Of a stretch of 20,981 nucleotides of DNA, positions 1,484 to 2,718 are shown piece by piece (the stretch's first letter is position 1; the number at the start of each line of letters is the position of its first letter). The stretch lies in IMG/VR virus record IMGVR_UViG_2529293049_000007. One strand, 5' to 3'. The notes under the pieces are model-generated. The model saw only the letters and a list, made by a program, of their open reading frames with translations. It made no database searches and was not told the origin of the DNA. A program made the translations under genes and the position numbers. This DNA is from a virus (lineage: Duplodnaviria; Heunggongvirae; Uroviricota; Caudoviricetes).

Positions 1484-2718
1484 GTGCCCGGTAAACGGGT
1501 CTCCCCCACATTACCGGAAGCAACCAGGGGAGTACCATTCGAAAGGCAGCATGCAGACAGTGATGACCCGGCAACAGTTGAGCCAGGGGCACGGTCCCCC
1601 GAATAATGCGTCTGGTAATACGCCGCAAGAACAAAAGAACCGACACCAAACAGCCCGCTGTCAGGGCTTCCGGATGGTCCCCGTGGTCCTGCCGGGCCTG
1701 CAGCTCCCGTATCCCCTTTCGGTCCCCGTGGTCCTGCCGGGCCTGCAGCTCCCGCATCCCCTTTAGGTCCCTGAGGACCTGCATTTCCCGTCAGACCGGT
1801 CTCTCCCCTGTCGCCTTTCGGCCCCTGCGGGCCTGCCGGACCAGCATCACCTGCCGGCCCCCGTTCACCGGTTGCCCCTGCCGGGCCGGTGTCGCCACGC
1901 TCTCCTTTATCTCCCTTCGGCCCCTGAGGACCCGCGGGCCCCGGTTCCCCCTTTGGCCCGGGAGGCCCCACCACGGTGGGGATTCGGTTTACGGCCTCTT
2001 CCGCCGCTATCCTGCTTTGTTCCGCTGACTGTGCGCTTTCTGCTGACTCCCGGGCTTTTTCTGTTGCGGTCGTTGCATCCCTGGCTGCATTACCGGCTGC
2101 ACTTTCTGCCGTCTTTTTTGACAACTCAGCATCTGTTGCACTTTGTAATGACTCACTGGCTTTTTGAGCGGCCGCAGAGGCCGAGGACGATGACGCCTCC
2201 TCTGACTGCTTTGCTGAGGCTGCACTTTCTGCCGCCTGCCGGGCTGACTCCGATGCATCCCCTGCTGAAGTGTCAGCATTTGCAGCGCTCTCTTCTGCCT
2301 GACTGGCTGATATGCCGGCATTCCTCGCTGACGTCTCCGCCTCTCCGGCATTCTTCTTCGCCTCCTCTGCGTTACGCACCACCTCTTCCACCATCAGTTC
2401 AAAACGGCGCAGTGCCTCAGGACGGGCATCATCCTCCGTCATGGCACCGAGAAAATCATTCAGCGTACCGGGTCGGGAATCTTCATACACGGTGATGGTC
2501 CCGGCATGTGAAGGCGGAAAACCTTCAACCAGCAGGGTGACGCTGTACTGACCATGCTCAACATCCATGCTGTAACGTCCGGCTTCATCCGGATTTTCAG
2601 AGGCCACCGTGTTCACCACCACCGTGCTGCTGGTTCGTCTGGCCTTCAGCACAATGGTGCAGTTCTGTACTGGTTTTCCTGTGCCATCTTTAAGCACGCC
2701 AGAAATTTTTACTGTCAT
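1405..2718 (-). CDS. stf: side tail fiber protein with collagen-like Gly-X-Y repeats
   Basis: 437-aa ORF directly downstream of lom; N-terminal [12 protein letters not shown].. domain, Ala/Ser/Glu-rich helical segment, about 100 residues of GPxGxxGxx collagen-like triplets, short C-terminal domain; GGTGG upstream of ATG 2718. Confidence 0.85.
1676..1765. repeat. tandem duplication, 2 copies of a 45-bp unit (2 mismatches) inside the stf collagen-like region
   Basis: Units 1676-1720 and 1721-1765 read directly from the sequence; in the stf frame they encode two consecutive near-identical 15-residue collagen-like units ([15 protein letters not shown] / [15 protein letters not shown]). Confidence 0.85.

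Follow-up and report, generated by a model that had tools for sequence, protein, structure and literature searches.

Two adjacent, nearly identical 45-bp units in a collagen-like tail fibre gene raise the question of whether the fibre of this phage has recently been lengthened by a duplication, or whether the units are what is left of a longer repeat. The gene lies in a window of 20,981 nucleotides (the window being the whole stretch of DNA that was analysed), which is the minus-strand late region of a lambda-like prophage with its terminase, portal, head and tail genes, J and lom. The cells within reach of a temperate phage depend in part on its side tail fibres, and virulence genes spread among pathogenic E. 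coli by way of prophages of this kind; changes of fibre length in steps of 4.4 nm, set by the repeat with the frame never broken, would be a simple way to vary reach. We consider it very probable that the repeat region forms the distal half of the shaft of a lambda-type Stf belonging to the EPcl family (E. coli prophage collagen-like side tail fibre proteins; Ghosh et al., 2012, PLoS One 7:e37872, PMC3368898), that its array gains and loses whole units, and that the window carries the shortest allele rather than a fresh duplication.

The fibre gene, its predicted domains and its neighbors are the following.

3537-6932, minus strand: J, upstream of stf, as in lambda
2870-3469, minus strand: lom, between J and stf, as in lambda
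1405-2718, minus strand: stf, side tail fibre gene, 437 aa plus stop, an EPclC*-type collagen-like prophage fibre (ORF and translation, Pfam, PHROG tail fibre families)
2320-2718, minus strand: PfN domain of stf, the attachment end of the fibre, aa 1-133 (PF08400, E 2.3e-68)
1969-2319, minus strand: PCoil region of stf, a predicted trimeric coiled coil, aa 134-250, Ala/Ser-rich (by composition and length)
1663-1968, minus strand: collagen-like domain of stf, aa 251-352, 34 uninterrupted Gly-X-Y triplets, 102 residues (regular expression on the translation)
1408-1662, minus strand: C-terminal tip domain of stf, aa 353-437, 85 residues, predicted to be small and all-beta, a presumed trimerisation and receptor-binding knob
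788-1459, minus strand: DUF4376 gene, overlapping the 3′ end of stf (PF14301, E 1.9e-16; PHROG 1141 'tail fiber protein', E 1.5e-79)

The identification of the gene as a collagen-like side tail fibre, already proposed in a sequence-only reading of this DNA, is borne out by PF08400, PF01391, the PHROG tail fibre families and the place of the gene after J and lom. The PF08400 alignment covers 133 of the 134 profile positions (Pfam), and the first 94 residues align with 9e7m_Ta, a chain of solved structure named 'Tail fiber protein' (phmmer against the PDB, E 8.5e-49). With stf located 3′ of J and lom and carrying the Stf N-terminal domain PF08400, this is a lambda-type side tail fibre locus, and the likeness to lambda Stf consists in this homologous N-terminal domain and the same genomic position. 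Lambda Stf is an accessory fibre that speeds adsorption, and we presume the same role here; to our knowledge, lambda Stf lacks a collagen domain. Downstream of stf, lambda has its partner Tfa, whereas the window has the DUF4376 protein (annotated as WP_244400054.1 in O104:H4). No Tfa-type chaperone gene was found directly 3′ of stf, the DUF4376 protein having no match to a tail fibre assembly family in Pfam or PHROG. To judge from its position and family matches, this gene may be a companion tail fibre gene at the position of lambda's tfa, encoding a chaperone or a second fibre component. Its start differs between genome annotations (223 versus 202 aa), and its overlap with stf is 55 nt, or 79 nt when counted from an upstream GTG (788-1483). 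The stf-DUF4376 pair may be transcribed apart from the main late operon. Strong terminator-like hairpins are located at 2737-2766 between lom and stf and at 3499-3518 between J and lom, both on the minus strand, with another at 758-777 after the DUF4376 gene. A DinI-like ORF is present on the plus strand of the window.

The domain order of PfN, PCoil, Col and a non-PfC C-terminus, together with the GPQ-GPK-GD triplet pattern and the composition of the PCoil, likens the protein to EPclC*. The PCoil, with 117 aa of which 50% are Ala or Ser and 6.8% are L, I, V, M or F (composition count), fits the description of this region and its 116-residue length in the orthologue from strain 55989, EC55989_1078, which is listed as EPclC* with 467 aa (Ghosh et al., 2012, Table 3) and is longer than the window allele with its 437 aa and 34 triplets. 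Glycine at every third residue, about 21% proline and a recurrent GPQ-GPK-GD motif characterize the collagen region, which yields a Pfam Collagen match (PF01391, E 1.8e-16) and matches animal collagen chains in the PDB and, weakly, BclA (1wck; phmmer). The sequence-only reading had placed about 33 triplets at 1672-1990; the run does exist, but it comprises 34 triplets and extends over 1663-1968, starting 9 nt further left and ending 22 nt earlier.

According to experiments on EPclA, the protein is trimeric and contains both a genuine collagen helix, as long as predicted, and a coiled coil that is likewise trimeric; it is dumbbell-shaped, its stalk measuring about 16 nm plus 30 nm, and its C-terminal domain trimerises and re-nucleates the helix (Ghosh et al., 2012). 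Because the window's Stf is homologous to EPclA, which was tested experimentally by these authors, we infer that it too forms a trimer with a collagen triple helix; the published biochemistry concerns EPclA and EPclB, which differ in architecture from the protein in the window. In such a trimer, PfN would dock on the tail tip, the coiled coil and the collagen triple helix would make up the rod, and the beta-rich tip would cap the far end. For the collagen part, taken as a triple helix with 0.29 nm per residue (figure from Ghosh et al., 2012), the computed length is about 29.6 nm.

The tip domain has no match in Pfam or PHROG, and PF06820 (PfC) and PF13884, though present in other homologues, are absent from the C-terminus of the window's Stf (Pfam), which is the same as that of the 55989 orthologue. 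An AlphaFold2 model of the tip, of moderate confidence (mean pLDDT 69, core 75-90), is similar to C-terminal portions of tail fibre proteins from phages of Pseudomonas, Aeromonas and Roseobacter (Foldseek, E 3e-5 to 1e-3, TM 0.5-0.6) and finds no structural match in the PDB (Foldseek). As modelled, the domain appears to be a widespread fibre-tip fold without a solved structure. The predicted fold also recurs at the C-termini of Campylobacter phage tail fibres.

The repeat occupies the last third of the collagen domain and abuts the tip domain. In the register of the coding strand its parts are the following.

1676-1782, minus strand: 45-bp tandem array, period 45, 2.4 copies, score 179, no indels (Tandem Repeats Finder)
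1738-1782, minus strand: unit A, 15 residues
1693-1737, minus strand: unit B, 15 residues
1676-1692, minus strand: partial unit of 17 nt, the end of the array

The upstream flank of the array ends in …ACCGGTCTGACGGGAAAT, and the start of unit B, as joined to unit A in the window, reads GGACCACGG / GCAGGACCACGG. The units are arranged head to tail and their length is a multiple of three, which makes the array a coding tandem repeat, each unit of which specifies five Gly-X-Y triplets or about 4.4 nm of rod. The sequence-only reading used another register (1676-1720 and 1721-1765), and the near-identity that it reported between these two blocks is confirmed: 43 of the 45 bases are equal, the mismatches being at 1710 (T versus C, Thr to Ala) and 1720 (C versus A, synonymous), while units A and B in the coding-strand register differ at 5 positions. 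Collagen genes are inherently repetitive in codon usage (GGN CCN and so on), and the repeat could in that respect be taken for a by-product; the chance of this is negligible. In 5000 shuffles of the triplets the best identity between adjacent 45-nt blocks had a mean of 28.1 (sd 2.3) and a maximum of 38, so that none reached the observed 43; in-register 45-nt pairs from the non-repeated part of the collagen domain have on average 22 matches and at most 32; and relatives carry up to 12.5 copies.

With respect to these relatives, the whole stf gene is found in one piece in none of 5426 complete E. coli genomes: matches always stop at the repeat, because the copy number differs. In the yecD-adjacent prophage of O104:H4 str. 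C227-11, there are 0 mismatches to the window in the 1018 nt upstream and the 1782 nt downstream of the array, 2800 nt of flank in all, and this prophage has exactly 225 bp (five units, in frame) more than the window. Array lengths were measured with a BLAST query consisting of the flanks only; ten complete genomes carry both flanks, at an identity of at least 99.7%. The alleles are given here with their unit order as read in the coding-strand register, the 17-nt partial unit following each string.

107 nt, 2.4 units, A-B: the window (the same order on its source scaffold)
197 nt, 4.4 units, A-C-A-B: HUSEC2011 and FWSEC0009
197 nt, 4.4 units, A-C-F-E: 55989
287 nt, 6.4 units, A-C-A-C-D-E: JE86-ST02 and O111:H21 strain 15A
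332 nt, 7.4 units, A-C-A-B-C-A-B: the five O104:H4 genomes C227-11, 2011C-3493, FDAARGOS_349, FDAARGOS_403 and an rpoS mutant

The ORFs of all alleles are intact (437, 467, 497 and 512 aa), and the 59 triplets of the outbreak allele correspond to about 51 nm of collagen, compared with about 30 nm for the 34 triplets of the window allele. Furthermore, all 17 IMG/VR loci with the same C-terminal domain have a period-45 array directly upstream of the tip domain, with 2.8-12.5 copies and with higher-order periods of 90, 135 and 180 bp. The array is accordingly found at the same place in 27/27 related loci with this tip domain (10 complete genomes and 17 from IMG/VR). The number of copies is thus not identical everywhere, and its variation among close relatives by whole units (2.4, 4.4, 6.4 and 7.4 when the complete genomes are set beside the window) bears out the earlier suggestion that fibre length changes in 15-residue steps. 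The homologues in O157:H7, which have a different C-terminus, are about 98% identical in the collagen domain up to the array and contain at the same place two units that match at 80%; since these two units have diverged, the original duplication is old. To judge from the sequences compared, the array is a trait of the family, old in origin, and dynamic in the clade that has this tip domain. In a family-wide homologue search, only one cluster representative (P0001) had the same C-terminus over its full length, the others being of other C-terminal types; the phage collection held no record with this C-terminal type over at least 80% of the gene, and none of the four allele proteins, queried with and without the stop, was among the members of the protein-cluster collection.

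Changes of other kinds also occur at the array. In IMGVR_UViG_2521172734_000004 (locus L014, about 1323-1350), 36 nt (four triplets) bounded by the short repeat CGGGA are missing at the array start relative to 55989, which indicates that in-frame changes other than those of whole units take place. In IMGVR_UViG_2617270950_000012 (locus L015, about 1376), where the tip domain is 100% identical, unrelated sequence runs directly into the final 20 nt of a C unit, after which comes A-B; either the contig is chimeric at the repeat or a true rearrangement has occurred.

As for the direction of change in the window, the claim of a recent duplication of one 45-bp unit in this lineage, adding 15 residues to the fibre, has in its favor the 43/45 identity of the two units and the occurrence of block duplications in the family, such as the exact 135-bp C-A-B of the 7.4-unit O104:H4 allele. 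The comparison with relatives points the other way. The window has the fewest units among all 28 loci, every outgroup allele has at least 3.8 units, and the two-unit state in the O157:H7 homologues is old, with copies that match at only 80%. Moreover, A, B and the partial unit of the window are exactly, and in the same order, the 2.4 units with which the longer O104:H4 alleles end on their 3′ side; the first unit of these alleles is also identical to the window's A, and the flanks are 100% identical to those of O104:H4, which has five more units. We therefore regard a fresh duplication as very unlikely, and as the least likely reading of the direction of change; on this point the sequence-only reading is not supported. 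Most likely, on the unit orders compared, the window's allele, the shortest one, arose through loss of units between identical A units (or through assembly collapse), because its order is A-B as opposed to A-C-A-B(-C-A-B) and all outgroup alleles begin with A-C, the window having no C. Under this scenario, a 4.4-unit ancestor A-C-A-B would have given rise to the outbreak form by tandem duplication of the 135-bp block C-A-B, and to the window form by a deletion between two identical A units, of 90 bp if from the 4.4-unit allele or of 225 bp if from the 7.4-unit allele. The junction of the missing 225 or 90 bp must fall within unit A (1738-1782), where the identity of the A units prevents a more exact placement. 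Parsimony over few alleles is the basis for this direction, and in principle A-B could be the ancestral allele, with C-A imported by recombination.

Loss of units can be real or can be produced in assembly, and we lean, if only slightly, towards a loss that took place in the bacterium. That the organism has no 2.4-unit array, a true array of 4.4 or 7.4 units having been shortened in a short-read assembly, has a probability somewhat short of even. Conceivable routes would be the false merging of overlapping read pairs inside the identical A units, the patching of gaps at small k, and reference-assisted patching. Among public sequences, the exact 437-aa protein is present on a single scaffold, JH378021.1 of GCA_000235145.1, a scaffold-level and probably short-read assembly, and this scaffold belongs to the same accession block as the Broad Institute scaffolds JH378062/63 of Ec09-7901. 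Later isolates of the Ec09-7901 series, with the same library method, were sequenced as 101-nt Illumina pairs and assembled by ALLPATHS-LG with reference-assisted patching, and the paper on this series reports assembly errors in tail genes. Neither the 2.4-unit allele nor, by exact match, the junction of the upstream flank with A-B is present in any of the 5426 complete E. coli genomes; a paralogous stf within an O104:H4 genome was considered as a source of this junction and rejected, no genome having it exactly. A-B is also the shortest path through the unit graph of A-C-A-B-C-A-B, and the assemblies of the outbreak clone disagree among themselves, five having 7.4 units and two 4.4. Furthermore, all ten other differences between the window and the outbreak prophage, which lie in four short patches (16289; 16544; seven sites in 18488-18732; 20066), carry the state of a paralogous prophage of the same genome (FDAARGOS_349, about 119-127 kb, locus L013), a pattern typical of repeat confusion. 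At the 155 sites that separate the yecD prophage from this paralogue, the window follows yecD at 145 and the paralogue at 10, in a three-way comparison for which a MAFFT alignment was used, the paralogue having indels. As an outgroup for the ten head-gene differences 55989 was discarded, its stf module being located in a prophage with unrelated head genes.

Against an assembly origin stands the size of the words that it requires. The longer alleles contain all k-mers of the window array only as far as k = 51, so that A-B could result from plain de Bruijn collapse only with k ≤ 51, whereas the 4.4-unit form can be derived from the 7.4-unit form for k up to 158. ALLPATHS-LG probably operates at K=96, well above 51. 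In addition, the paralogue-type site 16289 is only 84 nt from the yecD-type site 16373, which is hard to obtain by traversal of a k=96 graph, and real differences are to be expected if the source was a historical, non-outbreak O104:H4 isolate. The mosaic of paralogue patches reflects either short-read assembly chimerism or gene conversion between prophages. The two 4.4-unit outbreak assemblies are easily explained by collapse of the perfect 135-bp duplication, and part of the copy-number variation within O104:H4 may be assembly collapse; the agreement of the five outbreak-clone assemblies on 7.4 units, several of which we take to be long-read, argues against very high instability. NCBI annotation lists the 7.4-unit stf as a pseudogene ('incomplete, missing C-terminus'), with a CDS that ends inside the repeat (positions 2501-4036 of locus L001, from C227-11; also in loci L003 and L009); given an intact 512-aa stf with a normal C-terminus, the repeat seems to have misled the annotation. 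The array is mis-assembled or mis-annotated in public genomes, one outbreak clone being reported with three lengths, and repeat-length differences at this locus should not be taken as evolution without read-level support.

If the loss of units in the window is nevertheless real, as we slightly favor, it would be one instance of a process in which long, near-identical direct repeats allow whole units to be gained or lost, probably by replication slippage or unequal recombination and often several at a time (90, 135, 180 or 225 bp). The reading frame and the Gly-X-Y register are always kept, and the resulting alleles differ only in shaft length. The earlier suggestion of slippage or unequal recombination in whole-unit steps gains support as a general idea, although the sequence alone cannot tell the two apart. 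Shaft length may also affect adsorption, the best precedent being BclA of Bacillus anthracis.

Repeats of this kind have parallels elsewhere. BclA has a polymorphic collagen-like region in which, according to the title of Sylvestre et al. (2003, J Bacteriol 185:1555; cited in PMC5434927), the number of repeats sets the length of a surface filament. BclA and the window's Stf have in common a coding Gly-X-Y tandem repeat with a copy number that varies between strains; BclA, in contrast, is a protein of the spore surface and not part of a virion, its repeat units and terminal domains are different, and it is for BclA that the effect on length was measured. Gly-X-Y arrays located beside a globular trimerisation domain, with repeat numbers varying by strain or phage, are also known from Streptococcus phage proteins and from streptococcal Scl1 and Scl2. 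The latter is discussed by Ghosh et al. (2012). Only the collagen motif is shared between these streptococcal proteins and the window's Stf, hosts and architectures being different. Publications already cover the protein family, its architecture and the variability of its length, including Col domain lengths that vary in multiples of three within EPcl (Ghosh et al., 2012), and our results leave the knowledge of the family unchanged. Their contribution is a modest one and comprises the higher-order structure of 45 bp, the finding that it always accompanies one tip domain, the series of alleles, and the warning with regard to assembly and annotation. Ghosh et al. (2012) do not mention the 45-bp higher-order repeat, its tie to this tip domain, or allele differences within one lineage.

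A bolder proposal, which we consider unlikely, is that the array is a hypermutable length-tuning module that changes within one epidemic lineage (2.4, 4.4 and 7.4 units), travels with one tip domain between unrelated prophages, and matches the reach of the fibre (a collagen rod of about 30 to 90 nm) to the thickness of O-antigen or capsule. If this were true, the array would be a contingency locus for host range and a marker for fine-scale typing.

Independently of the number of units, the fibre module as a whole appears, on comparison of the prophages that carry it, to be exchanged between them as a cassette. The module comprising stf, the DUF4376 gene and a YkgJ-like gene (385-2718) is nearly identical in prophages that differ in integration site and have unrelated head genes: in O104:H4 it resides in the lambda-like prophage by yecD, and in 55989 (locus L032) and O111:H21 15A (locus L002) in a prophage at tRNA-Ser/hyaA. 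The YkgJ-family cysteine-cluster ORF (86 aa, 385-645, plus strand) lies in a region that is called frameshifted or partial in every related genome examined, and the 55989 prophage that carries the stf module has a ClpP-capsid fusion as a head gene.
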